Positions 3,029-41,511 of a stretch of DNA of 64,000 bases are shown one piece after another. The DNA is taken from the NCBI GenBank assembly GCA_937951895.1, contig CALFER010000090.1, positions 25,648 through 89,647 on the forward strand, in the 5' to 3' direction. The translations under genes were made by a program, and so were the position numbers. Source of the stretch: an uncultured bacterium (lineage in GTDB: Bacteria; CSSED10-310; CALFER01). Below the pieces are notes generated by a model. The model had not been told where the DNA came from. It worked only from the letters and a program-made list of their open reading frames with translations, and made no database searches. Numbering within the stretch: the stretch's first letter is position 1; each line of letters begins with the position of its first letter.

Positions 3029-5427
3029 CCGGGTACGCCCGCATCGCGATTACCGGGATCGGCGTCGTGAGCCCGATCGGATCGACAATCGACGCCTTTC
3101 TGGAATCCCTCAGCCAATCCCGCTGCGGCATTCGCCCGATGCAGGCATTCGACACCTCACCATTCCGGACAAATCTGGCCGGTGAGATTCCGGAGTTCGA
3201 TCCGCGGGATGAGTTGACGGACGACGAGATCGCCGAGTGGGGCGATCGGTATCTCTGGCTGGCGCTGTCCGCCGCACGGATGGCGATCCGGGATGCCGGT
3301 TACAGCGAGGGTTTCTCTGGAGCCCGCACGGTCGGAATCGCCGCGGGAACGTGCAACGGTGGATTACAGACCGCCGAACGGCTGTACCGGATGTTGCATG
3401 GAAACGAACCCGGGCATGTCGACGAACGGATGAACATCCTGTTCCGGTATTTTGCTCTGGGGCGCGCGCTTTCGAAGGTGTTCGCGATCGGAGGACCGGT
3501 GCATATCGTGACCACCGCGTGCGCCTCATCAACCGGCGCGCTGGGCCTGGGAGCCGACATGATCCGGTCCGGGCGCGCGGACTGCGTGCTTGCCGGAGGA
3601 GCCGATGCGTTGTGTCTGACGGCATATTCCGGTTTCAGCGGCATCAAGGCGATGGCAACCGGAATGACGACCCCATTCTCGGGCGCCGGAGAATACGGAT
3701 TGAATCTCGGCGAAGGAGCCGCCTTCTGGATTCTCGAGCACTTCGACGGGGCGATTGCGCGACAGGCGCGGATCTATGGTGAATTGCTGGATTACGGTCT
3801 TTCAGCGGATGCCTACCATGTCACGGCTCCTGATCCTCAGGGCGCAGGGACTCTGCGAGCCATGCGGTCCGCTCTGGAACGATCGGGAATCACCCCCGCG
3901 GAACTGGGATACATCAATCCGCATGGAACCGGAACCGAAGCCAACGATCGTTCGGAGTCTCGTGCAATCGAGAAACTGCTCGGTGACTCGAGTCTCACGG
4001 TACCGGTCAGTTCCTCCAAATCGTTTTTCGGACACTGTCTCGGAGCTGCGGGAATCCTGGAAGCTACGGCGTCTTTGCTCAGCATGCGAGCGGGTGTGAT
4101 CCCGCCGACGCTGAATTTTACCGACCCGAGACCAGGCTGCCGGTTGGATTATGTCCCGAATCAGGCAAGGCCGGCGCAATATCGTGCATTTCTGTCCAAC
4201 AGCATGGCATTCGGAGGCAACAATGCGGCGGTTTGCGTTAGTCTGGCCGGTGAATCTCCGCGTAACGGAACCGCGGCATCGGAGCGCAGGCGGGTCGTCA
4301 TAACGGGAACGGGAGCGGTGTCGCCGTTCGGACTGGATCCCGCCGCCCTGCTCACGGGACTCGCCACCGACCGATCAGCCATCCGCCCGATCGACCGTTT
4401 CAGCACTGACCATTGCGCATCACATCGAGCGGGTCTCGTTCCTCAGACCGATTGGAAACGTGCGGATCGCCGGATGAATCTCCAGGACCTGGAACCCCTC
4501 AGCCGCTATGCGACGTTGGCCGCCCGTCAGGCCCTCGATTCGGCGAATCTCAGGGTCACGCCCCGCAACTGTGATGCGGTCGGAATGATTCTCGGGGTCT
4601 GTGTCGGCCCGAACGAAGAAGTGCTGATGAACAGCGTCTGGGGTTCGCCCGACCACACACCGGACCTCGGGAAGTTTTCGGTCATCGTCGCCAATTCCGT
4701 CAGTGGGTGCGCATCCAAGGAACTCTTTTTGAAAGGCTATAACACCGTGCTTTCACCGGGGCATCACGCAGGCATGGCCGCGCTGATCCAGACCCAGGAC
4801 GCCATCGAACTCGGCCATTGCAACTCGATCGTCTGCGGGGCGAGTGATGAACTGTTTGCACGATACTTCTATAATTATGACACGGTGGGGTATCTGGCCC
4901 GTGCCTGCGATGAAATCCGATATGGCGAAGTGCTTCTTCCGGCCCGTCAGCGGGTTCTGGGAGAGGGGGCCGCTGCGCTGCTCGTGGAATCGCATGCGAC
5001 CGCCATCGAGAGCGGGCATGCGATTCTGGCCGAGATTCTCGGATCAGGCATGATCCACGACCCCGGACCGCTGCTCGAAGGCTGTCAATCCGAAGCCGGC
5101 CTTCTCGCCGCCATCGAAATCGCGTATGCACGCTCCGGTGTCGACCCGCGGCGCACGCAGTGCATCCTGCGCGCCCCTCAGGGGAATGCGGATGACCGAT
5201 TCGAACTCGGTGCAATCGAGCACTTTTTCGATCGATTTGGTGTTCATCCCTCCCGGCGCACGACTGTATTCCAAACCGGGTATGCCGAATCGGTTTCCGT
5301 ATTGTTCAACGTGGTGGCTATGTTGAACGGCTGGCGGGACGAGGCCATGCGCCTGCCGGGACACGTTCTGGTAACGGCATCGACGCTGATGGGGTACCAT
5401 TACGCGATGATCATGGAGGTTTTGTGA
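3025..5427 (+). CDS. Tandem ketosynthase didomain protein: N-terminal FabF-like KS with a full Cys-His-His triad, fused to a second KS-fold domain lacking the His motifs (CLF-like)
   Basis: Domain 1 has ITGIGVVSPIG, TACASS (active Cys), INPHGTGTEANDRSE and SSSKSFFGHCLGAAG. Domain 2 restarts with VVITGTGAVSPFG, has ANSVSGCASKELFLKG, but no HGTGT/GHxxGAAG motifs. The ATGA overlap with the upstream gene indicates translational coupling. Confidence 0.8.
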   Translation: MTGYARIAITGIGVVSPIGSTIDAFLESLSQSRCGIRPMQAFDTSPFRTNLAGEIPEFDPRDELTDDEIAEWGDRYLWLALSAARMAIRDAGYSEGFSGARTVGIAAGTCNGGLQTAERLYRMLHGNEPGHVDERMNILFRYFALGRALSKVFAIGGPVHIVTTACASSTGALGLGADMIRSGRADCVLAGGADALCLTAYSGFSGIKAMATGMTTPFSGAGEYGLNLGEGAAFWILEHFDGAIARQARIYGELLDYGLSADAYHVTAPDPQGAGTLRAMRSALERSGITPAELGYINPHGTGTEANDRSESRAIEKLLGDSSLTVPVSSSKSFFGHCLGAAGILEATASLLSMRAGVIPPTLNFTDPRPGCRLDYVPNQARPAQYRAFLSNSMAFGGNNAAVCVSLAGESPRNGTAASERRRVVITGTGAVSPFGLDPAALLTGLATDRSAIRPIDRFSTDHCASHRAGLVPQTDWKRADRRMNLQDLEPLSRYATLAARQALDSANLRVTPRNCDAVGMILGVCVGPNEEVLMNSVWGSPDHTPDLGKFSVIVANSVSGCASKELFLKGYNTVLSPGHHAGMAALIQTQDAIELGHCNSIVCGASDELFARYFYNYDTVGYLARACDEIRYGEVLLPARQRVLGEGAAALLVESHATAIESGHAILAEILGSGMIHDPGPLLEGCQSEAGLLAAIEIAYARSGVDPRRTQCILRAPQGNADDRFELGAIEHFFDRFGVHPSRRTTVFQTGYAESVSVLFNVVAMLNGWRDEAMRLPGHVLVTASTLMGYHYAMIMEVL

Positions 5428-7679
5428 AAGGGACGGCGGAGGTTCTGGTCACCGGGATCGGTATCGTATCCCCGATCGGAAATTCGGTTTCGGCCTTTCT
5501 GAACGCGTTGAAATCATCGAAATCCGGCATCCGTCCGATCGATCTCTTCGATGTAGCTCAGTTCAGGTCACATGTGTATGCACCGGCACATATCGAAACC
5601 TTGCCGGAACTCTCGGATCCCCCTGACACGGCGACCTGGGACCGGCATCTCCAGCTCGGCTATTTCGCTCTCAGGGATGCCCTGCGCGATGCCTCGATCG
5701 ACCGCGATCGCATTCCTGCACGAACCGGTCTGGTCTGTGCAACATGTTCCGGTCCGATGCTGACGATTGAAGCCGAGTATCTTCAGACGCCGATCGTACC
5801 GGGAGCGGGGGCGCGAACGGAATCCGTGTATCGGGATTACCGGCGGTATTACTCGATGGAGCGGACTCTCGTTCGCGTTTTCGGCATTCGTGGATTTTCG
5901 ACCACGGTTGTGACGGCGTGCGCCGCGAGCAGCAATGCGATCGGGCTGGGAGCCGATCTGATCGCCGAGGGCATTCTCGATCAAGTGTTCGTGGTCGGTT
6001 CGGATGCCTTTTCACCGTCGACGTTTGCCGGGTTCGATTTTCTGAAAGCCACCTGCATATCGGAATGTGCGCCGTTTTCGGACCCCGCCGGCATGAATCT
6101 GGGAGAAGGCGCCGGGGCCTGGGTGCTTGAAAACGGTGAGGTCGCCCGGCGACGGGGATCGAGGATCAGGGGACGGGTTCTGGGGTATGGCCTGAGCAAT
6201 GATGCCTACCATGCGACCGCGCCGGATCCGCAGGGCGAGGGGGCGATACTTGCGATGACCCGAGCCATGCATGATGCGGCGATCGACCCGGCATCCATCG
6301 GATACATCAACGCACACGGCACAGGAACGCTTCCGAATGACAGGACGGAATCGAGAGCGATCACGCGCGTGTTCTCCGATCGGACACCACCTCCGGTCAG
6401 TTCCTCAAAATCGTTCTTCGGTCATGCACTCGGTGCTGCAGGGATTCTTGAAGCATCCGCATCGCTGCTCATGATGAATGATGGCCTGCTGCCTCCGACA
6501 TTGCGATTCACGACCGCCCGGGAGGGTTGCGGACTGGATTACGTGCCGAATACGCCTCGCAAGACGGATGCCGGAGTGTTCTTGTCGAATAACTTCGCGT
6601 TTGCCGGCAATAACTCGGCGCTCTTGGTTGGAACAGTCGGGTGCGAAACCTCTTCCGCACGGGAATCGATGCCCAATGAAGTGGTGATCACGGGTTACAG
6701 CAGTCTGATGCCGGACGACACACGTGATCCGGCCGATCCGCGATCGTACACGTTCGACCTCGCGCGACTGGCACAGATGGATCGCCGTTTGCCCCTGAAG
6801 GAGATGGATGTGTCCAGTCAACTCGCGACACTGGCATCGAAGCGCGCGGTCCAGCATGCCGGATTATCGTTGAAGCCGCCGGATGCCAGGCAGATCGGCA
6901 TGATTCTTGGCCTCTGTGACGGTCCGAATCGCGGAGAAGCGGCGCATCTCAGGAGCATCGCGGTTTCCGGCCTGTCCGCTCCGAATCTCGTCATGTTTCC
7001 CTACATCGTCCTGAATTCGGTTGCCGGACAATGCTCGCGAGCATTGGGACTCAAAGGGTTTTCGTCGACTCTCTGCGGAGCCCCCGGTGCGGGGCTCCAT
7101 GCACTGATCTATGCCGCACTCGCAATCCGGCGCGGGCATGCGTCGATCTGTCTGGCATGCGGAGTCGATGAACGCCAGGAGTCGTATGTGTATGTGGATG
7201 AGAGTTCACATGCGGATGCCGGAATCGAGGATCGGCCTGTCAGTGACGGGGCGGCGTGCCTGGTTCTGGAGTCCGCCGGGTCCGCTCATGCGCGTCAGGC
7301 GAACGTCCTGGGCCGTTGGTTGAGCGGGTCGAGTTCCAATCTGGGGCCGGATCGATCCGAGGTGAACATCGGGCGTGAATGGGAGAGGTTCATTGAAGAA
7401 CTGGGCATCCCCCGCCGATCGATCGCAGGGATCGTGGTCGATGCCGATTATGGCATCGACGCGAAACGGATCGAGGAAGTGGCCCGGCGGTTTTCCTCCT
7501 CGACCGGAGCGAGGATTATCAGCGGAACGGAAGCCGGAAGCGCCCGTTCGTTGTCTTCCGGAGCACTCCGCAACATCTCGATCGCGCTGCAGATCCCGAA
7601 CTGTTCGGGGAAAACAGTCCTGACCGCCTACCTGTCGTCACTCGGACAACTCGGACTGATTGCGCTGCGGATCGAATAA
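5424..7679 (+). CDS. Second tandem KS/CLF-like didomain protein, paralogous to 3025-5427
   Basis: Domain 1 has VTGIGIVSPIG, TACAASSNAIGLGAD, INAHGTGTLPNDRTE and SSSKSFFGHALGAAG. Domain 2 has VVITGYSS...LNSVAGQCSRALGLKG without the His motifs. GTG start in a GTGA overlap, GGAGG 4 nt upstream. Confidence 0.8.
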   Translation: MKGTAEVLVTGIGIVSPIGNSVSAFLNALKSSKSGIRPIDLFDVAQFRSHVYAPAHIETLPELSDPPDTATWDRHLQLGYFALRDALRDASIDRDRIPARTGLVCATCSGPMLTIEAEYLQTPIVPGAGARTESVYRDYRRYYSMERTLVRVFGIRGFSTTVVTACAASSNAIGLGADLIAEGILDQVFVVGSDAFSPSTFAGFDFLKATCISECAPFSDPAGMNLGEGAGAWVLENGEVARRRGSRIRGRVLGYGLSNDAYHATAPDPQGEGAILAMTRAMHDAAIDPASIGYINAHGTGTLPNDRTESRAITRVFSDRTPPPVSSSKSFFGHALGAAGILEASASLLMMNDGLLPPTLRFTTAREGCGLDYVPNTPRKTDAGVFLSNNFAFAGNNSALLVGTVGCETSSARESMPNEVVITGYSSLMPDDTRDPADPRSYTFDLARLAQMDRRLPLKEMDVSSQLATLASKRAVQHAGLSLKPPDARQIGMILGLCDGPNRGEAAHLRSIAVSGLSAPNLVMFPYIVLNSVAGQCSRALGLKGFSSTLCGAPGAGLHALIYAALAIRRGHASICLACGVDERQESYVYVDESSHADAGIEDRPVSDGAACLVLESAGSAHARQANVLGRWLSGSSSNLGPDRSEVNIGREWERFIEELGIPRRSIAGIVVDADYGIDAKRIEEVARRFSSSTGARIISGTEAGSARSLSSGALRNISIALQIPNCSGKTVLTAYLSSLGQLGLIALRIE

Positions 7680-7798
7680 CCCGTAACGATCTCGATTCCA
7701 TAACCCGAAAAACGTTCTTGGAAATTGTGTCTCTATTTGCTAAACATATCTCTTCTATCGACCATCCAATCCAGTCAGGAAGGAAGAATCGCAATAGA

Positions 7799-31796: not shown

Positions 31797-32711
31797 ATGA
31801 AACAGCGCTCCCTGATCCTGACCGGGGCAACCGGATTCCTGGGCTACAGTCTGATTCAGGAACTGAGTCCGTCCTTTAGAATCATTGCCGGAATCCATGT
31901 CCGGCAACCCCGATATCCGGTCAGCGAGACCGTTGCAGTCGATCTCGAAGGCGACCTCCCGGATCTGGACCGCCTCTGTGCCGCATCGACAAAGGCCGGA
32001 TCGCCGCCCATCATCCTGCATGCCGCTGCGGTTTCCACGGTACGGGAATGCGAGGAAAACCCGATTCTGGCACGGACAGTGAATTCGGATGGTACGGCTC
32101 GTCTGGCAGCCATCGCTGCGCGTTATGAATGCCCTCTTTTCGTCATCTCGACAGACCTGGTCTACGGCGCCGGCAGACCTCCATTTTCGGAATCCGAGGC
32201 GATGGCGACATCTGTGTACAGCAGATCCAAGCTTGAGGCGGAGGTGGCAGCGCAGTCGATCCATCCGGCATCCATCGTGCTCAGATGTGCGCTGATGATC
32301 GGCCCGGACACACCGTCGGCACCCTCGCATATCCGGAAAATGGATCGTTCGATCCGGCAGGGAACCGCATTGCATCTGTTTTTCGATGAATTCAGAACTC
32401 CTGTCTGGACTCCGGACATTGCCCGCGTCGTGCTGCGATCCATCGAGCTCGGGATTACGGGCCGGATCTACAATGTCGGCGGACCGGATCGAATCTCCCG
32501 GTATGATCTCGGATTACGGGCAGCCCGATTACTGGGCTGGCCACCTGAGCGTCTCGTTCCGGTATCGTCGGATTCGGTCGCACAGCCCGGACCTCGTCCC
32601 AAAGACTGTTCGCTCGATATCTCACGACTGAAGGTGGAACTGGGTCTCGACATGACTCCTGTTGATGCGGGACTTCAGATGCTTGCCCGGGATTGGAAAC
32701 GAGATGTCTGA
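31797..32711 (+). CDS. NAD-dependent epimerase/dehydratase family protein (RmlD-like)
   Basis: The N-terminal LILTGATGFLGYSL is the GxxGxxG motif. The YxxxK-type catalytic region is present. Confidence 0.7.
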   Translation: MKQRSLILTGATGFLGYSLIQELSPSFRIIAGIHVRQPRYPVSETVAVDLEGDLPDLDRLCAASTKAGSPPIILHAAAVSTVRECEENPILARTVNSDGTARLAAIAARYECPLFVISTDLVYGAGRPPFSESEAMATSVYSRSKLEAEVAAQSIHPASIVLRCALMIGPDTPSAPSHIRKMDRSIRQGTALHLFFDEFRTPVWTPDIARVVLRSIELGITGRIYNVGGPDRISRYDLGLRAARLLGWPPERLVPVSSDSVAQPGPRPKDCSLDISRLKVELGLDMTPVDAGLQMLARDWKRDV

Positions 32712-32982
32712 GCCTCGGCAGTGCTCGCGATGCGGCGCGCGACTCGGGCCCGGCATCCCGTCCTGGGTTTTGCGAATCGAGCTGACGGCGAATTTCGACG
32801 GGACGTTGGATTGTTCTTCAAAAGCGGCGAATGAGGCGGACCGGGCGATCGAAACGGTTCTCAGGCAGATCGAATGGATGGATGCAGAGACGCTTGAGAA
32901 TCAGGTCTATCAGTTCTTCGAGTTTACCTTGTGCCGGGATTGCCGGGATCACTACTCGGCGAATCCGCTGTACATTACGTGA
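32704..32982 (+). CDS. Small zinc-ribbon protein (CxxC ... CxxC), hypothetical
   Basis: Has CSRCGA ... CRDCRD. ATG 32704 overlaps the upstream stop. Weak support. Confidence 0.3.
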   Translation: MSEPRQCSRCGARLGPGIPSWVLRIELTANFDGTLDCSSKAANEADRAIETVLRQIEWMDAETLENQVYQFFEFTLCRDCRDHYSANPLYIT

Positions 32983-33274
32983 GGGAGTATCAAGGCAAGG
33001 CTGCATTCACAGGTTCGATACCATTCCACCACATCGACCAGGAGAGCAGCCACTCGGAAGGAATGCAGACAAGCGCGATCAGCAAAACGATGAGACAGCA
33101 GATGAGCAATCGATCGAAACGATCCTCGCATCGATCGATTGTGCGCTGTTCCGTGGGGGAGGCCGATCCGGGCGAACCGATATTCATCTCATTAATTTCC
33201 TGTTCATCGTCCATTTCATTTAATAAAATGGTGACTTTGAAGTCAAGCGGTCGAATGGTCGGGAAGCGAGACGC

Positions 33275-35164
33275 ATGGTGAAACTGGAATCGTGTCTGAT
33301 CCACACTCCTCAGCAGAATCTCCGCGCCATTGCCCTGCATCATCACATCGAACTTCCCGGGAACGCCGCACGAGCCGACATCGTCGTCGCTGTTCTCGAT
33401 CATCTCGGCTCACGCCATACCCTCAGCCGCCTGTTATCCTCTTGCACGGCGAATGAACGGGAGATCCTTCTGGCAATCCGAGCGACAGCCGGATCGATCG
33501 AGATCTCCATCCTGCAGAAAATGTTCGGAAGTGATGATCCCGATGTTCTTGCCAGATCCTTCTGGGGGCAGCCGGTGCCGGAAGGCATCGGGTCGCTTCG
33601 CCTCAAAGGCCTTGTTTTTCTGTTTTCAACCCCTGAGCAGACGGCTGAGAACTACGCCATTCCCGACGAGGTTCTCGCGTTGCTCAACGAAGACGTTTTA
33701 CCGGTTTCTGATTTGTCCGGGAGTGCACCTCCATACTATTCGGAGTTCTGCGATACGAACTGTTTGAAGGATTTCCTGACGTTTATCTGCGACGTCGATC
33801 GACGGAAAATCCGGCCGCTCACGGATGGATCACTGGGTTTGAGACATCGGAAGCACATCTCTGATTCCATTGCCGGAAACAATCCTCAAATCGCACGGGA
33901 GGAGATTCCGGAATATGTCTGTTTTCTTCATGCATGCGCCGTTCAGCTCGGTTTGCTGAAACACATCGGCGGCCGGTTGAGAATCGCGCGTTCCTTTGAG
34001 ACATGGGTCCGGCAGGAGCCATTCGATCAGTTACGGGATCTGTTCGATGCATGGAAGATGCTTCCCGGTTACGACGAGTTTCTCGGAATATCGACGATCC
34101 GAGTGTTGTCCGGGGGTCTCAGGCAGGCTCCCCGCCACGTTCGACTCATCATTCTTGACATGCTGCGTTCCGTTTCGCCCGGCGTCTGGGTGGACCTGAC
34201 GCGTCTGCATGATCACGCCGAGCGGAACCGACCTCGTTTTTTTCGCCCCATCCACCCGAAGCGACACTGGTCAGTCACGATCCCTTCCTCCGAGACCGAA
34301 CCCGATCATCCTTTCATGCTCGAACGGTTACTCCTCAATCATTTCATTCAACGCCACCTGTTCTGGCTCGGCATGATCCATCTCGGAACCGATGCACACC
34401 AGCACCCGGTCTCTTTCATGCTTTCGTTCACCGGTCACTCATTGCTTTGCGGAGGTACGCCTCCGGAGCGCAAGGAAGCACCGATACCCTGTGATCAGAT
34501 CATGGTGCAGCCTGACTTCGAGATTCTGATTTCAGAAACCGCGGTCCTGTCGGTCCGCTACATGGTGAGTCGGATAGGTGAACCGGCGGGATCCGGACCC
34601 GTCGACCGGTTCCGTCTGACGAGGAAGAGTATCGCGAGAGCGCTGGAAGCGGGTGTTGAATCCCATGAAATCCTTCGATTTCTGGATGCATCGAGTTCCG
34701 TCGGCATTCCGCAGAACGTGCGCGCTTCGATCGAGACCTGGATCAATCAGTATGGGCGCGTGCGGATCGGTTCAATGTTCTATCTCGAAACCAAAGACCA
34801 TTTCATCATGAAGGAACTACAATCGCATAGCAGCATTTCCGAATTGGTAGGCGACCCGATCGGGCTTGTCACAAACCGTCTCGACCCGGAAAAACTCATG
34901 CCCCTGGTCGATGAATTGAAACGCTGTGGCTATCTGCCGAAGATCGATCCGCACCTCAACGTCGATCTCGATGAACCACCGAAAACTCTGATGCTGTCCG
35001 AAACGCAACTGAAAGTACTGAAACGCCTATTGGCAACGGTTTTGCAGAAGAAACCGGCCTGGCTGGACGTACGATCGTTTGAAGTGATCGAAAAAATCGT
35101 GCGCACCAATCAGACGCTTTTTCCTGGAACTCATACAGACGCAATCTCTGAGAAGGAGGAATGA
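33275..35164 (+). CDS. Large hypothetical protein (629 aa), first gene of a nine-gene operon
   Basis: Long ORF, no Walker or other catalytic motifs recognised. Followed by 4-bp overlaps. Confidence 0.5.
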   Translation: MVKLESCLIHTPQQNLRAIALHHHIELPGNAARADIVVAVLDHLGSRHTLSRLLSSCTANEREILLAIRATAGSIEISILQKMFGSDDPDVLARSFWGQPVPEGIGSLRLKGLVFLFSTPEQTAENYAIPDEVLALLNEDVLPVSDLSGSAPPYYSEFCDTNCLKDFLTFICDVDRRKIRPLTDGSLGLRHRKHISDSIAGNNPQIAREEIPEYVCFLHACAVQLGLLKHIGGRLRIARSFETWVRQEPFDQLRDLFDAWKMLPGYDEFLGISTIRVLSGGLRQAPRHVRLIILDMLRSVSPGVWVDLTRLHDHAERNRPRFFRPIHPKRHWSVTIPSSETEPDHPFMLERLLLNHFIQRHLFWLGMIHLGTDAHQHPVSFMLSFTGHSLLCGGTPPERKEAPIPCDQIMVQPDFEILISETAVLSVRYMVSRIGEPAGSGPVDRFRLTRKSIARALEAGVESHEILRFLDASSSVGIPQNVRASIETWINQYGRVRIGSMFYLETKDHFIMKELQSHSSISELVGDPIGLVTNRLDPEKLMPLVDELKRCGYLPKIDPHLNVDLDEPPKTLMLSETQLKVLKRLLATVLQKKPAWLDVRSFEVIEKIVRTNQTLFPGTHTDAISEKEE

Positions 35165-35739
35165 CGATGCAACACTCCGGTTACTTGAAAGGGTTCATGA
35201 TCGTTCTCCTGGGAATCATCCCGGGCCTGATTGGACAGGCTGCCAACCCCCCACTGTTCGAACTGAAGAATCTTGACGGCGGCTCATACGCGCTGCAAGA
35301 TGATCTCGGAAAATCTGTCATCGTTCTCGACTTCTGGGCAACATGGTGCAAACCGTGTCTCCGGGAATTGCCGCATATCAACACGATTTACGAGAAGTAC
35401 CGTGAGAAAGGCTTGAAGGTGTACGCCATCTCTGTCGATGACGCCTCTTCGACCTCCAGTATCAAACCCACTCTCAAACGATACTCCTTCACCATGCCGA
35501 TTCTTCTTGATCCCAATAGTGATGTCATTCGCAAATACAACGCCAACCGGAACATACCGTTTCTCGTGATCATCGGTTCTGATGGCCAGATCGTCCGTGA
35601 TTTCACAGGTTATAAACCGGGCGATGAAAAACTGGTCGAGGAACTGGTCGAGGCGGAACTGGCGAAGATGAGCAAACCGGAATCCACCGCCGGGCAGTCC
35701 GCACCGAAGGAAGCAGAAACCGGAGGACAGACGGAATGA
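35161..35739 (+). CDS. TlpA/ResA-like periplasmic thiol:disulfide oxidoreductase (redoxin)
   Basis: N-terminal TM/signal sequence. Thioredoxin CxxC motif in LDFWATWCKPCLRELP. Confidence 0.75.
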   Translation: MTMQHSGYLKGFMIVLLGIIPGLIGQAANPPLFELKNLDGGSYALQDDLGKSVIVLDFWATWCKPCLRELPHINTIYEKYREKGLKVYAISVDDASSTSSIKPTLKRYSFTMPILLDPNSDVIRKYNANRNIPFLVIIGSDGQIVRDFTGYKPGDEKLVEELVEAELAKMSKPESTAGQSAPKEAETGGQTE

Positions 35740-37277
35740 CATTCCAGCGATTTCTTTGCATCGTTTTCTCCCTGGCTCTCCTCTCTGCACCGACCCTCGC
35801 GGGCACTCTCTTCGACGATTTCAAGTTATCCGGAACGTTTGAAAGTCAGTATTGGAATCATGACCCCAACGACTGGACCGACGGCGAAGATCCGGTCTAT
35901 GAAGGCCCTTATACATCCTGGGAAAACATTCTCGGACTCAATCTGGACTGGCGGTCCTATTTCGCCGAAGTTCGTCTCAGATCCATGCAATATACCGATC
36001 CGATTCATTATGACCCGAGGTCTCGCGAGCACGAAACAGACTTCGAGTTGTTCAAGTTTGCCGCGGGATATCGTGGAGAGTGGCTGAAAGTCACAGGCGG
36101 CGACTTCTACAAATCCTACGGACGCGGTCTCGTTCTGTTCGTCCAGGAAGACAAGGAACTCAATCTCGATCGCAGCATCCGCGGAGGTTCTGTCGATCTG
36201 ACTACCCGCTGGATCGATTTCAATATCTTCGGCGGAGACATCCGTTGGCACCTGTTTAAGGATCTTCTGAGTTCCATGACCATCGAAGATTTTAACATCA
36301 AGGATCGGGCAGTCGGAGCCAGAGCGGTCGGACATCTGCCGTTCAATATGAATCTCGGAGCCAGCTATGTCGCTGTGAAACAGTACGAGATCATCCGAGA
36401 TAAGTATGAAGACGAAGACCTGGCACTCGGAAGCGTCGATTTCCAGATCGCCGGCCTGTTCGATGGAATGCTGGACTTGTATACCGAGTATGCCGAACTG
36501 AAATGGGATTCCGAGGAACCCTTCGGTGAGGATCTCGATGACGGCAAAGCACTTTACTCCAGCATCACCTTGTATGCCGGCCCCGTTACGATTCTCGGAG
36601 AATACAAGGATTATGATTTCTGGGCATCTCGGTACAGCAGACCACCGACTGCTGACAGGGATGACGAAATCGCCGAGACCGACGATATCCGGGGTCCGCG
36701 AATCAGGGTGGATTACTTCCTCGCATCAACGGACACCCTTTTCTATGTCAGCGGGAGTCGATTCGACAATCATGCGCATGAAACCTCCTTCGGCAGCGTA
36801 TTCCGAAATCGAATCGATCATCTTTATGGTGGAATCGAGCAGAAATGGGATAATCTCTATGCTCATGTGACCTATGGCTACAAAAAATACGTCACACTGG
36901 ATGAGATTCACCGCCGGATTACCTCTGATATTGAATACACCATCGTCGGCAACCACAGCATCAATCTCTATTATGAGTATAAATTCACAGGAAATCCCGG
37001 TGCGGAAAAAGACGAGCATAAAAGCTATCTGACCTATTCCATCAGTCCCTTTCTCTCTGTGACTGCACACTACAGCAAACACATCATCCAGCAGACAGGA
37101 AAGAACAGGACCGAAGACGAATGGATCGCCGGCGAAATCAGCACGACGCCGATCCCTGCCCTGACACTCATGGTTGTTTACGGCAAACTGCCGCCAGGCC
37201 TCATCTGCAGCGGCGGCCAATGCCGGATCGCACCTGAATTTGAAGGCATTCAGGCATCGCTCAGTTACCGATTCTGA
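35736..37277 (+). CDS. Outer-membrane beta-barrel protein, function unknown
   Basis: Signal peptide (LALLSAPTLAG). Alternating amphipathic beta-strand pattern. C-terminal ...SLSYRF ends in the aromatic residue typical of OMPs. Confidence 0.5.
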   Translation: MTFQRFLCIVFSLALLSAPTLAGTLFDDFKLSGTFESQYWNHDPNDWTDGEDPVYEGPYTSWENILGLNLDWRSYFAEVRLRSMQYTDPIHYDPRSREHETDFELFKFAAGYRGEWLKVTGGDFYKSYGRGLVLFVQEDKELNLDRSIRGGSVDLTTRWIDFNIFGGDIRWHLFKDLLSSMTIEDFNIKDRAVGARAVGHLPFNMNLGASYVAVKQYEIIRDKYEDEDLALGSVDFQIAGLFDGMLDLYTEYAELKWDSEEPFGEDLDDGKALYSSITLYAGPVTILGEYKDYDFWASRYSRPPTADRDDEIAETDDIRGPRIRVDYFLASTDTLFYVSGSRFDNHAHETSFGSVFRNRIDHLYGGIEQKWDNLYAHVTYGYKKYVTLDEIHRRITSDIEYTIVGNHSINLYYEYKFTGNPGAEKDEHKSYLTYSISPFLSVTAHYSKHIIQQTGKNRTEDEWIAGEISTTPIPALTLMVVYGKLPPGLICSGGQCRIAPEFEGIQASLSYRF

Positions 37278-38209
37278 TGCGTCTCATCCACCTCACTCTC
37301 CCCCATTCTCACCCTCTCAGCCCTCATTTCGATCTTATACTCCCGACCGACAGACCACACGTCCGCCGGTCGGCCCCGTTCACGCCACCGCTCATCGCCG
37401 GACATTCCAATCCGATCGTTCTCACCGGACATGCAGTCATCACCGATTGGGAATCTTCAAACCGCCGATCCATCCCGGCCCTGGTCAGCCTTCCGGATCG
37501 TTCATCGTTAGCGAGACTCTGGAAGACACGATGGGCACTCGCCGAGCAGAATCGTCATTCGGACATCGAGATTGCTCTCGCGTTCCATCGGTGCGTCCTT
37601 GACTGCTCAGTCAAACCAGCCGAGGCATTTAGCTGGATCCCGGAACACCTTCGCACACACGGTCCCGATGAACTGTTGCGCGTCGGAGCATTGCCGCGAT
37701 CGTTTCTTATCCGGTTGCACACATCTTCCCTTGATTGGTCGACTGTAAGCAGATTGGCTGATTTTTATCCTTCGGACCGCAGAAGCCTTTTTTCGGTCTG
37801 TTGCCTGTTTTCACAGGCATCATCCAGCCAGTTTCGCATGATTGTCGATGTTCTTCAGGAACTCGCGATCATCGGCAACACGACGATACGCGATTATCTG
37901 CGAGATCCCGTCTGGCGGAAAAACGTAGCGGAGCGAACTCGAAAACAGCGCGCGCAACTCCTCACCACACATCTCAACCGACTCCGAAACCCCCTGCAAA
38001 CGAGATTCCAGGAAAAAATCAATGACATGATCGCTGATGTGGCGCTGCCTCCCGGGGCCAGACTGCTGACTCCGCCGGGAGGCGAGGGCTGCACGATTGA
38101 TCTGAACATGAGACTCACTTCAATCAACGAACTGGACGAGTATGCCGAGGCCCTCCGGAACAGTCGACAGGCAATCGAGCGACTCCTGACATTCTTGCGG
38201 GATGAATAA
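37277..38209 (+). CDS. Hypothetical protein
   Basis: ORF in the operon with coupled overlaps. No motif recognised. Confidence 0.4.
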   Translation: MRLIHLTLPHSHPLSPHFDLILPTDRPHVRRSAPFTPPLIAGHSNPIVLTGHAVITDWESSNRRSIPALVSLPDRSSLARLWKTRWALAEQNRHSDIEIALAFHRCVLDCSVKPAEAFSWIPEHLRTHGPDELLRVGALPRSFLIRLHTSSLDWSTVSRLADFYPSDRRSLFSVCCLFSQASSSQFRMIVDVLQELAIIGNTTIRDYLRDPVWRKNVAERTRKQRAQLLTTHLNRLRNPLQTRFQEKINDMIADVALPPGARLLTPPGGEGCTIDLNMRLTSINELDEYAEALRNSRQAIERLLTFLRDE

Positions 38210-39230
38210 CCGGAAGAGGGTCTCGCAATTCCTGATCGATGATTCTCTCACCCGACATCCGTTAATCGGTGAATTGCTCGCGTGTTGTCGCCCCATCCCC
38301 GTCGCGTGGTTTTCGAACTCCGCGGAGCAACTCCTGCGATCGATTCGCGGCCAATCGACTCGAACCGTCGTCATCACGCGGAACCCGGGACTCTTTTTCA
38401 AGCCCATGCATGCTTCGGGCGGGATCCCGGATCCGGAACGCATCGGACACTATCGCTTCGACATGCTGCAGGGATGTCCGGGGCGCTGTCTGTACTGTTT
38501 TTGCCGGTGTTACCTGAACACGCCTTCTCCGCATGTATTTTTGAACATCGAAGACGCAACAGGTGAACCGGCTTGTAGAGTTCCGAGCCGACTTGTAACC
38601 GGAGATATCGCCGACAGCCTCGCTCTCGGATCATTGTCGCTCCTTCTGCATGAGTATGCGGCGATATGCCTTCCGGATTCGCGCTTCGAACTGCGGTCGA
38701 AGTTCGCGCTTCCTCCCGGCTGGCAACGATTGGATCCCCGCCGATTCAGACTCGACTGGAGTATCAGCCCCGCACGGGCGATTCGATCGTTCGAGCCCGG
38801 CACCGATCACCTCGATACCCGTCTCGACTCGATCGGAAAAGCTGTGCAGGCGGGATTCCCGGTCGGGCTGCGTCTGGATCCTCTGCAGAATTACGCCTCC
38901 GATGATCTGTCGTACGTCGAACTGATCTGTGAAATCGCTCGCAGGATGAGAGGATGGATGCCGGAAGCCATCGTTCTGGGAGCATACAAGCTGACTCCTG
39001 AACTCAGACAACTCATCTTGAAGACATCACCGTTATCCGGGATCAACACGATCGAGTGGACATTATGCGAAGATGCCAAGTATCGTCCTTCTCGCGCACT
39101 CCGTATTCCGCTTTACCGCCGGATGATCGACCAGATCGATGCGTGTTTCCCGGGTGTGCAGATCCATCTGAGCATGGAGCCGGCGTGGGTATGGAATCTA
39201 TTCCCGAGATGCCGGGTGGAATCGGACTAA
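38202..39230 (+). CDS. Radical SAM protein, spore-photoproduct-lyase (SPL) family-like
   Basis: Has CPGRCLYC (CxxxCxxC). The overall layout resembles SPL-family radical SAM DNA-repair/lyase proteins. Confidence 0.6.
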   Translation: MNNRKRVSQFLIDDSLTRHPLIGELLACCRPIPVAWFSNSAEQLLRSIRGQSTRTVVITRNPGLFFKPMHASGGIPDPERIGHYRFDMLQGCPGRCLYCFCRCYLNTPSPHVFLNIEDATGEPACRVPSRLVTGDIADSLALGSLSLLLHEYAAICLPDSRFELRSKFALPPGWQRLDPRRFRLDWSISPARAIRSFEPGTDHLDTRLDSIGKAVQAGFPVGLRLDPLQNYASDDLSYVELICEIARRMRGWMPEAIVLGAYKLTPELRQLILKTSPLSGINTIEWTLCEDAKYRPSRALRIPLYRRMIDQIDACFPGVQIHLSMEPAWVWNLFPRCRVESD

Positions 39231-39255
39231 ACCTTGCGATAGCCGAACGAGTCTA

Positions 39256-39828
39256 ATGGTCTGGATTGGACGTGATGCCGTGGACGACACCGAACTGATC
39301 GAACAAGTAAAAGCAGGGAATCAATCAGCCTACTCCAGCCTCATGGACCGGTACATGCCGCTCGTTTATTCCCTGAATCTGCGGATGCTCCGGAATCCGC
39401 AGGATGCCGAAGATGCCACACAGGATGTCTTCATTCGGGCGTATCAGCAGATCAATCAGTTCAGGGGACAATCGCGATTCAGCACATGGTTATACCGGAT
39501 TGCGGTGAACATGAACCTACGGAAACTCAAGAAAATCAACAGGATCAACCATGAAATCGACGTGAGCGCCTTGGTGGATCTCCCGGACCCGGGCGGTAAC
39601 CCTCTGACGCACACTCTCGCACGCGATGAACGTGAAACACTCGATCGATTGATCACCAGGCTGCCCCCCAAGCAAAAACTCGTGCTGATGCTTCGGGCAA
39701 TCCGGCAGATGCCATTTTCTGAAATCGCCGCGATCACGAAGCGCTCACTGGGATCGGTCAAGGCCAATTACTTTCTCGCAGTCCAGAATCTGACTCTCGC
39801 AATGCGGAAGGAGACCGGGAAATCATGA
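39256..39828 (+). CDS. ECF-subfamily RNA polymerase sigma-70 factor
   Basis: Sigma-70 region 2 (..DAEDATQDVFIRAYQ..FSTWLYRIAVN) and region 4 (LPPKQKLVLML) are present. Confidence 0.85.
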   Translation: MVWIGRDAVDDTELIEQVKAGNQSAYSSLMDRYMPLVYSLNLRMLRNPQDAEDATQDVFIRAYQQINQFRGQSRFSTWLYRIAVNMNLRKLKKINRINHEIDVSALVDLPDPGGNPLTHTLARDERETLDRLITRLPPKQKLVLMLRAIRQMPFSEIAAITKRSLGSVKANYFLAVQNLTLAMRKETGKS

Positions 39829-40430
39829 ACGAGTGCAACCGTTTCCGAAAGCAGGTTTCTCTGGGACATTTCGACGAATCTCTCCGGGAAGTGTCGCTTT
39901 CGAACCAAAACCATATCGCGTCCTGCCCGGATTGCCGCGAATGGATCAGCCAACTCGGGAAGATTGAAGAGCAGTTGAATCCTGACCGGGAGATTCCGGC
40001 GATCGAACCGGAAGTACTGAGACGAATGAAGCGGAGTGTTATGGTTGCGATCGATGCGACACCGATTCGAGCCGGATTTCTGCGATCGTTTCTGCTGTCG
40101 ACGAAACTCATCGCATTTTCTTCGGCAGCCGCCCTTCTGATATTGATTATCGCATTCAGGATCGCTCCGATCCGCCATGGATCGGACCATGACAGCGAAC
40201 GTGCGATCGCTGCGGCAACGCTGTTGGTCGAAGAAACGGACTCGCTGGATACCGCAGACCCCGAAGTTCTTTCTCAAGCGCTATGGATTCAGATCGACAC
40301 GGCTCTGATGCCGTTCATCGAGGAAGAAATCGAGACATCCGATTCGACCGGACTGTCGGATTCCATGTTGGAAACTGCACGGAGTTTTCAGGAGGATGAC
40401 TGGAACGCTCTCAGGAGGTATTTATCATGA
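39825..40430 (+). CDS. Anti-sigma factor (zinc-finger N-terminus, single TM)
   Basis: Sits immediately downstream of, and coupled to, the ECF sigma gene. Has an HxxxCxxC-like motif HIASCPDCREW and a central hydrophobic helix. Confidence 0.6.
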   Translation: MNECNRFRKQVSLGHFDESLREVSLSNQNHIASCPDCREWISQLGKIEEQLNPDREIPAIEPEVLRRMKRSVMVAIDATPIRAGFLRSFLLSTKLIAFSSAAALLILIIAFRIAPIRHGSDHDSERAIAAATLLVEETDSLDTADPEVLSQALWIQIDTALMPFIEEEIETSDSTGLSDSMLETARSFQEDDWNALRRYLS

Positions 40431-41014
40431 GATGCACGGGAGTATTTGAACGATGGGCTGTCATTGTTTTCCTGTTGCTCGGCGCGACAGTGTCGGCGCA
40501 GGAAGGTTCACCGACTCAGAATGACCATAAGCGGCGTGAAGATGCCCGTGAGATGATGGAATCGATCCGCATCTGGAAGATCACGCAGGAACTGGAAGTC
40601 GATGAGTCACTCGCGTCACGCCTCTTTCCCAGGATCAACGAAAGCAATCGGATTCGACGCCAAACCGACCGGGATATTGCGAAATCTCTTGCTGAACTGC
40701 AAGTTCTCATCGAAAAAGGCGCTCCGGATTCTGCGTTGAACGCAGGGCTGGAAAACGTGATTCAGGTCCGCGAGAACGGCATGCGTGCGATCAGGCAATC
40801 CGAAGATCGCATCATGGAACTCCTGACGCCGAAACAGAAGGCGAAGTATCTGGTGCTGGAATCCGAGTTCCCCCGCAAGGTGCGGGATTTCATGCGGCAG
40901 CACCGAAGTCAGAAGCGCGGAGAAGCCGGTAATGGATCAGGACCACCGCCCTGGACGGATCCCCTACCTCCCGACGGACCCCCGGATTTTCCCGAACATC
41001 CTCACGGTGAGTAA
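40427..41014 (+). CDS. Periplasmic LTXXQ-motif protein (Spy/CpxP-like)
   Basis: Signal peptide. LTPKQKAKY is an LTXXQ motif. Coiled helical repeat. Confidence 0.55.
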   Translation: MRCTGVFERWAVIVFLLLGATVSAQEGSPTQNDHKRREDAREMMESIRIWKITQELEVDESLASRLFPRINESNRIRRQTDRDIAKSLAELQVLIEKGAPDSALNAGLENVIQVRENGMRAIRQSEDRIMELLTPKQKAKYLVLESEFPRKVRDFMRQHRSQKRGEAGNGSGPPPWTDPLPPDGPPDFPEHPHGE

Positions 41015-41511
41015 GTTTTCTCTGCCTGCTGTGCGTCCCGGATGACCTTGTTCGACAGATTCTGCTTATAGGCGTGCAGCAGGGGTTTCAGTTCGGTGAA
41101 TTCATTTGCAATGACCTGAACGGCAAACAGCGCGGCATTCCGGGCGCCTCCCTGTCCAACAGCCATCGTCGCCACCGGCACTCCGGGGGGCATCTGCACC
41201 ATCGACAGCATGGCATCCATTCCGAGCAGAACGGAAGAGGGAATCGGAACTCCGACAACCGGCAAGGTGGTCTCGGCTGCGATGGCTCCGGGTAATCCTG
41301 CAGACCAGCCCGCAGCCGCGATGATCACTCTCACTCCCAGCCCTTCTGCCTCCCGTGCGAGTGTGACCGTTCGTTCCGGTGTCCGGTGTGCGCTGCTCAC
41401 CGTCATCCGATATGGCACTTTGAACTCCTCGAGAATCTCGATTGCACCCGACACAACCGACAGATCCGATGAACTTCCGATAATGATTAAGACACGAGGA
41501 CACGATTTCAT
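41002..41511 (-). CDS. purE: N5-carboxyaminoimidazole ribonucleotide mutase
   Basis: VLIIIGSSSDL..., PVVGVP and the MAVGQGGARNAAL motifs are present. Confidence 0.85.
   Translation of the reverse strand: MKSCPRVLIIIGSSSDLSVVSGAIEILEEFKVPYRMTVSSAHRTPERTVTLAREAEGLGVRVIIAAAGWSAGLPGAIAAETTLPVVGVPIPSSVLLGMDAMLSMVQMPPGVPVATMAVGQGGARNAALFAVQVIANEFTELKPLLHAYKQNLSNKVIRDAQQAEKTYSP

Follow-up and report, generated by a model that had tools for sequence, protein, structure and literature searches.

An eight-gene run of a CSSED10-310 bacterium is probably a composite of four modules, among them an apparently undescribed radical SAM gene pair

The RpoE-RseA-RseB module of E. coli and the CnrH-CnrY-CnrX module of Cupriavidus each combine an extracytoplasmic function (ECF) sigma factor with a single-pass anti-sigma factor and a periplasmic accessory protein, and both are transcribed from an autoregulated promoter of the AAC(-35)/TCT-A(-10) type; the sigma-E consensus reads GGAACTT-N16-TCnAA. 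In spore photoproduct lyase (SPL, encoded by splB), a radical S-adenosylmethionine (SAM) enzyme with a CX3CX2C motif, Cys140 and Tyr98 (Geobacillus numbering) are the hydrogen-atom relay residues. In TFIIH, the clutch domain of p52 has the same fold as the N-terminal domain of XPB, and the two domains pair (PMC6422496). Proteins resembling each of these meet in one run of genes at positions 33275-41014 (+) of a 64,000-nucleotide stretch (hereafter the window) of contig CALFER010000090.1 from an uncultured bacterium of the CSSED10-310 lineage. An initial annotation had taken this run for a candidate envelope-stress or envelope-modification system, possibly a dedicated signalling-plus-repair/modification unit.

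We conclude that the run is probably a composite of four separate modules, namely g1 (module A), g2-g3 (module B), g4-g5 (module C) and g6-g8 (module D), as the genes are numbered in Table 1. Our findings do not support a single signalling-plus-repair unit, because the sigma trio (g6-g8) has a predicted promoter of its own, with no matching site elsewhere in the locus, because g4-g5 occur independently in other phyla and are absent from one relative, and because g1, apparently a cytoplasmic protein, belongs to the XPB-partner family. Moreover, cytoplasmic and envelope proteins interleave along the run, the modules evolve at very different rates, and the gene order that holds them together is inherited.

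The list of open reading frames (ORFs) reproduced all coordinates and overlaps of the initial annotation, with the exception of its count of nine genes. There are only eight, since a co-directional upstream ORF (32662-32982) is separated from g1 by an opposite-strand gene (32990-33187), which leaves g1 as the first gene of the run. Neighbouring genes overlap by 4 bp (g1/g2 and g2/g3), 1 bp (g3/g4) and 8 bp (g4/g5) at junctions of the ATGA or TGATG type, g5 and g6 are separated by 25 nt, and the g6/g7 and g7/g8 overlaps are 4 bp each. The motifs WCKPC (g2), CPGRCLYC, i.e. CX3CX2C (g5), HxxxCxxC (g7) and LTPKQ (g8) are all present. Analysis of hydrophobic segments points to cytoplasmic products for g1, g4, g5 and g6 and to envelope proteins for g2, g3, g7 and g8. 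We consider all eight genes to be real, since conserved counterparts of each, with 19-60% identity, are found in seven or eight relatives.

These relatives are eight distinct loci collected from the contigs of g1 and g5 homologues and from a genome scan, one of them being a candidate division CSSED10-310 bacterium from Zodletone spring. Searches of 5.8 billion proteins returned only five full-length homologues of g1 and five of g5, word-indexed homologue searches with g1, g5 and g4 returned lineage members only, and a scan of genome contigs with the lineage radical SAM alignment found only three metagenome-assembled genomes from CSSED10-310 or related to it. Several metagenome contigs from this organism encode the identical g1 protein.

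The three genes at the end of the run were correctly named from the outset. The g6 product has sigma-2 and sigma-4 domains only (Pfam Sigma70_r2 and Sigma70_r4_2) and scores 93 bits against TIGR02937 (cut-off 42.9). A weak NCBIfam anti-sigma match was obtained for g7, which has one transmembrane helix (about residues 88-119) and whose periplasmic C-terminal domain closes with the conserved ...DWxALRRYLS. In the eight sequences compared, H30, C34 and C37 are invariant, as is the C-terminal RRYL. Finally, g8 carries a signal peptide and the LTPKQ motif within LLTPKQKAKY, and a profile of eight orthologues matches the E. coli Spy structures (E 0.002). Pfam Metal_resist is found in four of these eight orthologues (best 2.8e-8) and LTXXQ, weakly, in four of the eight, with the window copy alone reaching E 0.054.

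The composition of this trio is thus that of the Rse and Cnr modules, from which it differs in its order of sigma, anti-sigma and periplasmic protein. Further differences concern the single proteins: g7 has an HxxxCxxC motif that CnrY and RseA lack, and g8, a member of the same LTXXQ/Metal_resist clan as CnrX, ZraP, Spy and CpxP, has a fold unrelated to that of RseB. We did not find any invariant His among the eight g8 orthologues, which makes metal sensing of the CnrX type unlikely, and we rejected this role for g8.

Directly 5' of the sigma gene, the seven relatives first examined share the motif TAAAC(C/T)TT-15 nt-(G/A/C)TC(T/C)NA, and the eighth (L018), which was outside the training set of the matrix, has it at the expected place with 17.9 bits. 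We predict that this element, with the consensus TAAACYTT-N15-VTCYHA at the same position in eight of eight relatives and a resemblance to the sigma-E consensus, is an ECF-type autoregulatory promoter. In the window, the -35 element TAAACCTT overlaps the stop codon of g5 and the -10 element GTCTAA shares its last A with the annotated ATG of the sigma gene. The -35 element overlaps the g5 stop in L007 too, and in both genomes it falls outside conserved coding sequence.

The promoter appears to be the only one of its kind in the region. In a matrix scan of the 64-kb window no site other than the one before the sigma gene exceeded 16 bits, and a degenerate pattern, searched with up to one mismatch, gave one match in the window against 0.11 expected. 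The regions before g1, g2 and g4, both in the window and in seven relatives, contain no site of at least 16 bits, and the matrix scan did not find a conserved second ECF site in the locus of any relative. Thus, of the two places in which the initial annotation had suggested looking for an ECF-type promoter, a conserved motif overlaps the stop codon of g5 and the region upstream of g1 contains none. A matrix site at 7740 (15.7 bits) was dismissed, as it lies inside an ORF. In L018 an ECF-like site of 20.8 bits with a spacer of 14 is found at about 3145-3177 (-), between the XdhC-like and RmlD-like genes, in this relative only.

A transcript from the ECF promoter would need a later start codon than the ATG at 39256, given that this codon shares its A with the -10 element. 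Translation on this transcript probably begins at the GTG at 39280 (182 aa); the eight N-terminal residues of the longer g6 product are not conserved, and the gene call in L007 starts at the equivalent GTG. We did not retain the view that the sigma module is appended to the genes before it: its own conserved promoter, as predicted from the motif, would put the trio at the head of its own autoregulated unit, as is usual for ECF modules, and we regard it as an ordinary ECF module.

By analogy with RseA/RseB, CnrYX and CpxP, the HxxxCxxC membrane anti-sigma factor g7 would hold g6. In turn, g8 may bind the periplasmic tail of the anti-sigma, perhaps at the conserved C-terminal RRYLS, and be titrated or released under envelope protein-folding stress. 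The released sigma factor would then fire TAAACCTT-N15-GTCTAA before its own gene and so amplify its own operon.

The radical SAM enzyme g5 had been assigned to the photoproduct-lyase family, and this assignment was borne out by the match of its profile to the SPL structures in the PDB (4FHC/4K9R; E 5e-16 over about 210 residues). The three cysteines C92, C96 and C99 are invariant. On the other hand, g5 remains far below the cut-offs of the SplB equivalogs (47.4 bits against 400 for TIGR04070 and 21 bits against 437 for TIGR03886), and the relay residues are missing: Cys140 of SPL aligns to Asp135 and Tyr98 to Phe100, both invariant in the lineage. Judged by these alignments, g5 is a member of the SPL superfamily and not an orthodox spore photoproduct lyase. 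Unlike the hosts of SplB, its host belongs to an anaerobic candidate phylum that is not a known spore former, and g5 has a dedicated upstream partner gene, which splB has not.

A hidden Markov model (HMM) of g5 searched against 1.84 billion representatives returned 1631 relatives, 161 of them at E<1e-30, with the score falling to 186 bits after the four lineage sequences. These relatives also match the SPL models far below the cut-offs. Those that carry a source name, in Acidobacteriota and Schekmanbacteria, bear the label "hypothetical" or an automatic "spore photoproduct lyase".

We then found that the pairing of g5 with g4 is not confined to the lineage. Metagenomes were scanned with six radical SAM sequences from outside the lineage, as the 35-sequence alignment was too diverse for search patterns, and 80 outside-lineage loci were recovered. 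In 71 of the 80, a g4 homologue lies directly upstream on the same strand, and in five of the nine loci without a g4-like gene the available upstream sequence is shorter than 200 bp. Homologues of g1, the TlpA-like g2, the DUF6029 protein g3, the sigma, the anti-sigma and g8 were found in none of the 80. The pair is present in Acidobacteriota, Schekmanbacteria, CSSED10-310 and many soil and sediment metagenomes. We conclude that g4-g5 are an autonomous module, since the pair recurs in the 71 loci without the other six families and is absent from L010, one of the relatives inside the lineage. A full-text literature search joining spore photoproduct lyase and ParB, the domain family to which the partner leads, returned nothing relevant. 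Therefore, g4-g5 are a widespread and apparently undescribed two-gene module. An anti-phage role was also considered and dropped, because the PADLOC models match neither g1, g4 and g5 nor their relatives.

What g4 is becomes visible only through these distant partners. Together with five lineage orthologues it has no Pfam match at E<=10 and no match to a PDB profile, and its AlphaFold2 model, built from the window sequence and one homologue only, has a pLDDT of 43. However, an HMM made from CSSED10-310 g4 sequences only finds the outside-lineage partners with E down to 4e-20, and hhalign aligns the lineage g4 alignment to them end to end (probability 99.7%, E 5.4e-27, 311 columns). The partners come in two forms, a long one of about 330 aa, like g4, and a short one of about 185 aa that corresponds to the C-terminal half only and has no ParB_N domain. 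Among the long forms, ParB_N is found in nine of 11 (best 2.7e-11) and HTH_ParB in one.

The outside-lineage homologues share with the ParB/Srx N-terminal family (PF02195) a GFRR...P-V/I core. The arginine patch of this core (GxRR) reads TGHAV in the window g4, and L013 and L014 keep SGFRR. On this alignment evidence g4 is probably a diverged member of the ParB-N-type proteins. Its conserved C-terminal half (R-x-P ... LP ... P-x-FEG-x-I), unlike the ParB_N part, has no known family; it is the constant part of the pair, because the short partners keep only that half. A stretch of low conservation, rich in Pro, His, Ser and Leu, makes up the first 75 residues of g4, and in the window genome the ParB-type GFRR motif has decayed to TGHAV.

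As to function, g4 would bind the substrate, most likely DNA, and present it to g5, which would use the SAM-derived 5'-deoxyadenosyl radical for a repair or modification other than the reversal of the spore photoproduct. We put forward this DNA-directed radical chemistry, guided by a ParB-type partner, as a tentative reading that we hold with less than even confidence. The genes found next to the pair outside the lineage, which include a family 2 (GT2) glycosyltransferase, an Asp/Glu racemase, SecA, CoxG, a lytic transglycosylase and a UDP-glucose dehydrogenase, would instead suit a substrate in the envelope or a small molecule, in which case an envelope theme would be right for this part of the cluster. 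That most partners beside such neighbours are of the short form without ParB_N, and that g5 lacks the catalytic Cys and Tyr of SPL, would agree with it. We nevertheless consider an envelope or small-molecule substrate, although the main alternative, unlikely: the nearest solved relative of g5 is a DNA lyase, the long-form partner has ParB_N and in one case also HTH_ParB, both domains of DNA-binding proteins, and the flanking genes may reflect nothing but a conserved housekeeping order in one phylum. In many soil metagenome loci (L030-L098; e.g. L035, 4100-12480) the order comprises CoxG, GT2, the short partner, the SPL-like radical SAM enzyme, the Asp/Glu racemase and SecA.

The first gene of the run also leads away from the envelope. 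The initial annotation had listed g1 as a 629-aa protein without assignment. We did not find any hydrophobic segment in g1, and its sole Pfam match is Helicase_C_3 (PF13625; residues 410-525, 73.5 bits). An AlphaFold2 model made from five homologues (pLDDT 74) gave significant Foldseek matches in the PDB only to TFIIH p52/Tfb2 (8ebu_D, E 8.6e-10 over about 570 columns; the p52-p8 crystal 6trs, E 6e-8; and, for the N-terminal half, 6tru) and to the N-terminal region of XPB (about 200 columns for its N-terminal domain). The TM-scores of these matches are low (0.19-0.29), which we attribute to the flexible chain of winged-helix domains. Based on this model and the lack of hydrophobic segments, g1 would be a cytoplasmic protein of the DNA-machinery type, from the XPB-partner family, and not an envelope protein.

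Compared with p52/Tfb2, the Helicase_C_3 match of g1 covers the clutch-like domain, and partners resembling p8, p34 and p62 are not evident. Two distant homologues of g1, one in a Paenibacillus genome and one on a metagenome contig, overlap the gene of an XPB-type helicase by 4 bp, an arrangement that, combined with the p52-like model of g1, suggests a bacterial XPB-p52-like pair. In the window itself and in the loci of the lineage, no XPB gene was detected by tblastn. A 2026 review on XPB and XPD mentions no bacterial p52-like partner (PMC13024598). The two overlapping gene pairs span L019 6292-9926 and L020 6280-10241, with the g1 homologues of 641 and 746 aa beside a helicase with the domains Helicase_C_3, ResIII, ERCC3_RAD25_C and Helicase_C. 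Taken as a whole, the picture in which g4-g5 are an undescribed cross-phylum system, with a ParB-type partner directing an SPL-like radical SAM enzyme to DNA, and g1 is separately the bacterial counterpart in a p52-XPB pair, seems to us doubtful.

The only conserved block before g1, in an alignment of seven upstream regions, is TAtAgAAT...TTGAAaTCAA. In the window it corresponds to the -10-like box TAATAAAAT, at a distance of 46 nt from the g1 ATG, followed by TTGAAGTCAA; both lie some 30-55 nt upstream of g1 and are found in the seven aligned relatives. We take it for a putative housekeeping-type promoter, which would drive g1 and probably g2-g5. As neighbouring genes touch or overlap in this stretch and no terminator intervenes, g1-g5 are probably carried on one transcript, with read-through that may extend into g6-g8.

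For the two envelope genes that follow g1, the initial calls of a TlpA-like redoxin and an outer-membrane beta-barrel hold. The g2 product matches Pfam AhpC-TSA, Redoxin and Thioredoxin_8 as well as NCBIfam ResA (E 1e-27), has a hydrophobic segment at residues 6-30, and its W62, C63, K64, P65 and C66 are invariant. It shares the WCxPC motif and the membrane anchor with the TlpA/ResA/CcmG oxidoreductases, but no cytochrome-maturation genes are adjacent. The g3 product scores 93.6 bits against Pfam DUF6029 (cut-off 27), begins with the signal peptide MTFQRFLCIVFSLALLSAPTLAG... and ends in ...SYRF, with a C-terminal Phe. HHpred has tied DUF6029 to the plug-less Wzi barrels, and a role as polysaccharide porin was proposed for DUF6029 (PMC9603273). 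While g3 resembles the Wzi-type barrels in its family score, signal peptide and C-terminal Phe, it has no capsule genes next to it, and a tblastn search of DUF6029 against plasmids gave no match.

Near the C-terminus of g3, the motif CSGGQC (37206-37223) contains C491 and C496, which are invariant in seven orthologues. This conservation suggests a lineage-specific redox relationship with the adjacent reductase. Accepting such a relationship, g2 would service the invariant Cys pair of g3 or other envelope thiols.

Gene-neighbourhood conservation, which the initial annotation had proposed as a check, was found in part. The order g1-TlpA-DUF6029-g4-radical SAM-sigma-anti-sigma-g8 is shared by eight relatives, L010 lacking g4-g5, and is confined to one phylum. 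The flanks are kept as well, with genes for a peptidase M20, an ornithine carbamoyltransferase (OTCase), an amidohydrolase, XdhC and an RmlD-like protein upstream, and purE, purD, purH, rpe, a PASTA-domain gene, fmt and def downstream, so that gene order is conserved over at least 30 kb and linkage cannot be told from inheritance on this basis. Since the housekeeping flanks are equally syntenic over these ~30 kb, the synteny of the eight genes is no proof of a functional link; it is inherited gene order. Within this common frame the proteins have diverged to very different degrees, identity to the deep relatives being 50-60% for g2 and g3 (56-59% for g2), 27-32% for g1 and 19-25% for g4; g1 identity over the relatives with the shared gene order is 27-34%.

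One relative departs from this order. In L010 (GCA_008633345.1) g4 and g5 are missing, and the DUF6029 gene is followed by a 377-bp spacer (5166-5543) and then by the sigma gene. No remnants of g4 or g5 were detected in this spacer by tblastn and HMM searches. It contains a hairpin followed by U9 (5298-5340; -24.6 kcal/mol, z -4.2), which precedes the ECF promoter (5350-5380). In the window, the 25-nt gap between g5 and the sigma gene holds no terminator.

Some points weigh against the separation into modules. The order g1-TlpA-DUF6029-(g4-g5)-sigma persists over deep divergence, and the loss of g4-g5 is known from the L010 contig only. In seven of the eight relatives the space between g5 and the sigma gene is too short for a terminator, which makes read-through co-transcription into the sigma genes plausible. 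Lastly, the scan for ECF promoters, on which the view of the regulon is based, covered 64 kb of the genome.

Considering these points, one might ask whether at least g1-g5 form a true five-gene operon apart from the ECF trio, for example a DNA-transaction module coupled to an envelope redox and porin pair. L010 dispenses with g4-g5 and keeps g1-TlpA-DUF6029, g4-g5 are never found beside g1, TlpA or DUF6029 outside the lineage, the g1 homologues there adjoin XPB and none of these genes, and in L012 a gap of 123 bp separates g1 from the TlpA gene. In light of this we find such an operon improbable, even with start and stop codons that overlap throughout g1-g5, a single conserved -10-like box upstream of g1, and three of the five proteins coming from DNA-associated families. 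Just as improbable is that the eight genes are one unit, in which the ECF sigma factor would sense envelope or oxidative damage and control or co-express the envelope proteins and the radical SAM enzyme, for the tight packing of the run (overlaps of 1-8 bp and a 25-nt gap), its conserved order in eight CSSED10-310 relatives and, in the window, the lack of a terminator from g5 to the sigma gene are outweighed by the sigma promoter with no second site in the locus, the wide occurrence of g4-g5 without the other genes and their loss from L010, the terminator ahead of the sigma promoter there, the equal synteny of the housekeeping flanks and the kinship of g1 with XPB partners. We thus return to the composite of four modules as the probable reading.

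Some features around the run are worth recording. The opposite-strand gene at 32990-33187 (-), divergent from g1, encodes a small, single-helix membrane protein (about 57-65 aa) with an invariant PSxWL..WS.WWN, and is also present in L009, L010 and L011. The ORF at 32662-32982 (+), downstream of the RmlD-like gene, encodes a zinc-ribbon protein that is conserved and about 90 aa long (CxxC ... CxxC, ending ANPL), whose true start probably lies later, because the N-terminal extension of about 18 residues in the window ORF is not conserved. At the other end, g8 overlaps the convergent purE (41002-41511, -) by 13 bp (41002-41014), a further sign of a compact genome, and no terminator-like structure was detected at this overlap. 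GC skew is strongly negative (-0.17 to -0.19) at 36500-38000, spanning the end of g3 and the first half of g4. A search of the window against Rfam gave no match.

Table 1. Genes and predicted promoters of the run, with positions in the window
Feature	Position	Strand	Description
g1	33275-35164	+	629 aa, cytoplasmic p52/Tfb2-like protein (predicted), winged-helix arrays and XPB-NTD-like (N-terminal domain) "clutch" domain
g2	35161-35739	+	192 aa, TlpA/ResA-like periplasmic thiol-disulfide oxidoreductase, N-terminal anchor
g3	35736-37277	+	513 aa, DUF6029 (Wzi-like) outer-membrane beta-barrel, signal peptide
g4	37277-38209	+	310 aa, cytoplasmic partner of the radical SAM enzyme, predicted diverged member of the ParB_N-domain family
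g5	38202-39230	+	342 aa, SPL-like radical SAM enzyme, C92-x3-C96-x2-C99
g6	39256-39828	+	190 aa, ECF (group 4) sigma factor
g7	39825-40430	+	201 aa, single-pass anti-sigma, HxxxCxxC
g8	40427-41014	+	195 aa, secreted protein of the Spy/CpxP/CnrX clan (LTXXQ)
Putative g1 promoter region	33221-33246	+	TAATAAAAT 33221-33229, TTGAAGTCAA 33237-33246
ECF-type promoter (predicted)	39228-39256	+	-35 TAAACCTT, 15-nt spacer, -10 GTCTAA

Altogether, annotating this run as a new envelope-stress system would mislead, since the neighbours of the ECF trio are there by inherited order in a compact genome. The value of the locus rests instead on what came out along the way, the g4-g5 pair and the p52-like g1, and not on the system first proposed. 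The pair is spread over hundreds of protein clusters, of which the named ones are called hypothetical or, wrongly, spore photoproduct lyase, and its substrate, once identified, would extend radical SAM chemistry on DNA or the envelope beyond the spore formers. Likewise, a p52/Tfb2-like protein in bacteria, whose gene is in some lineages translationally coupled to that of XPB, would bear on the age of the XPB-p52 sub-module of TFIIH.

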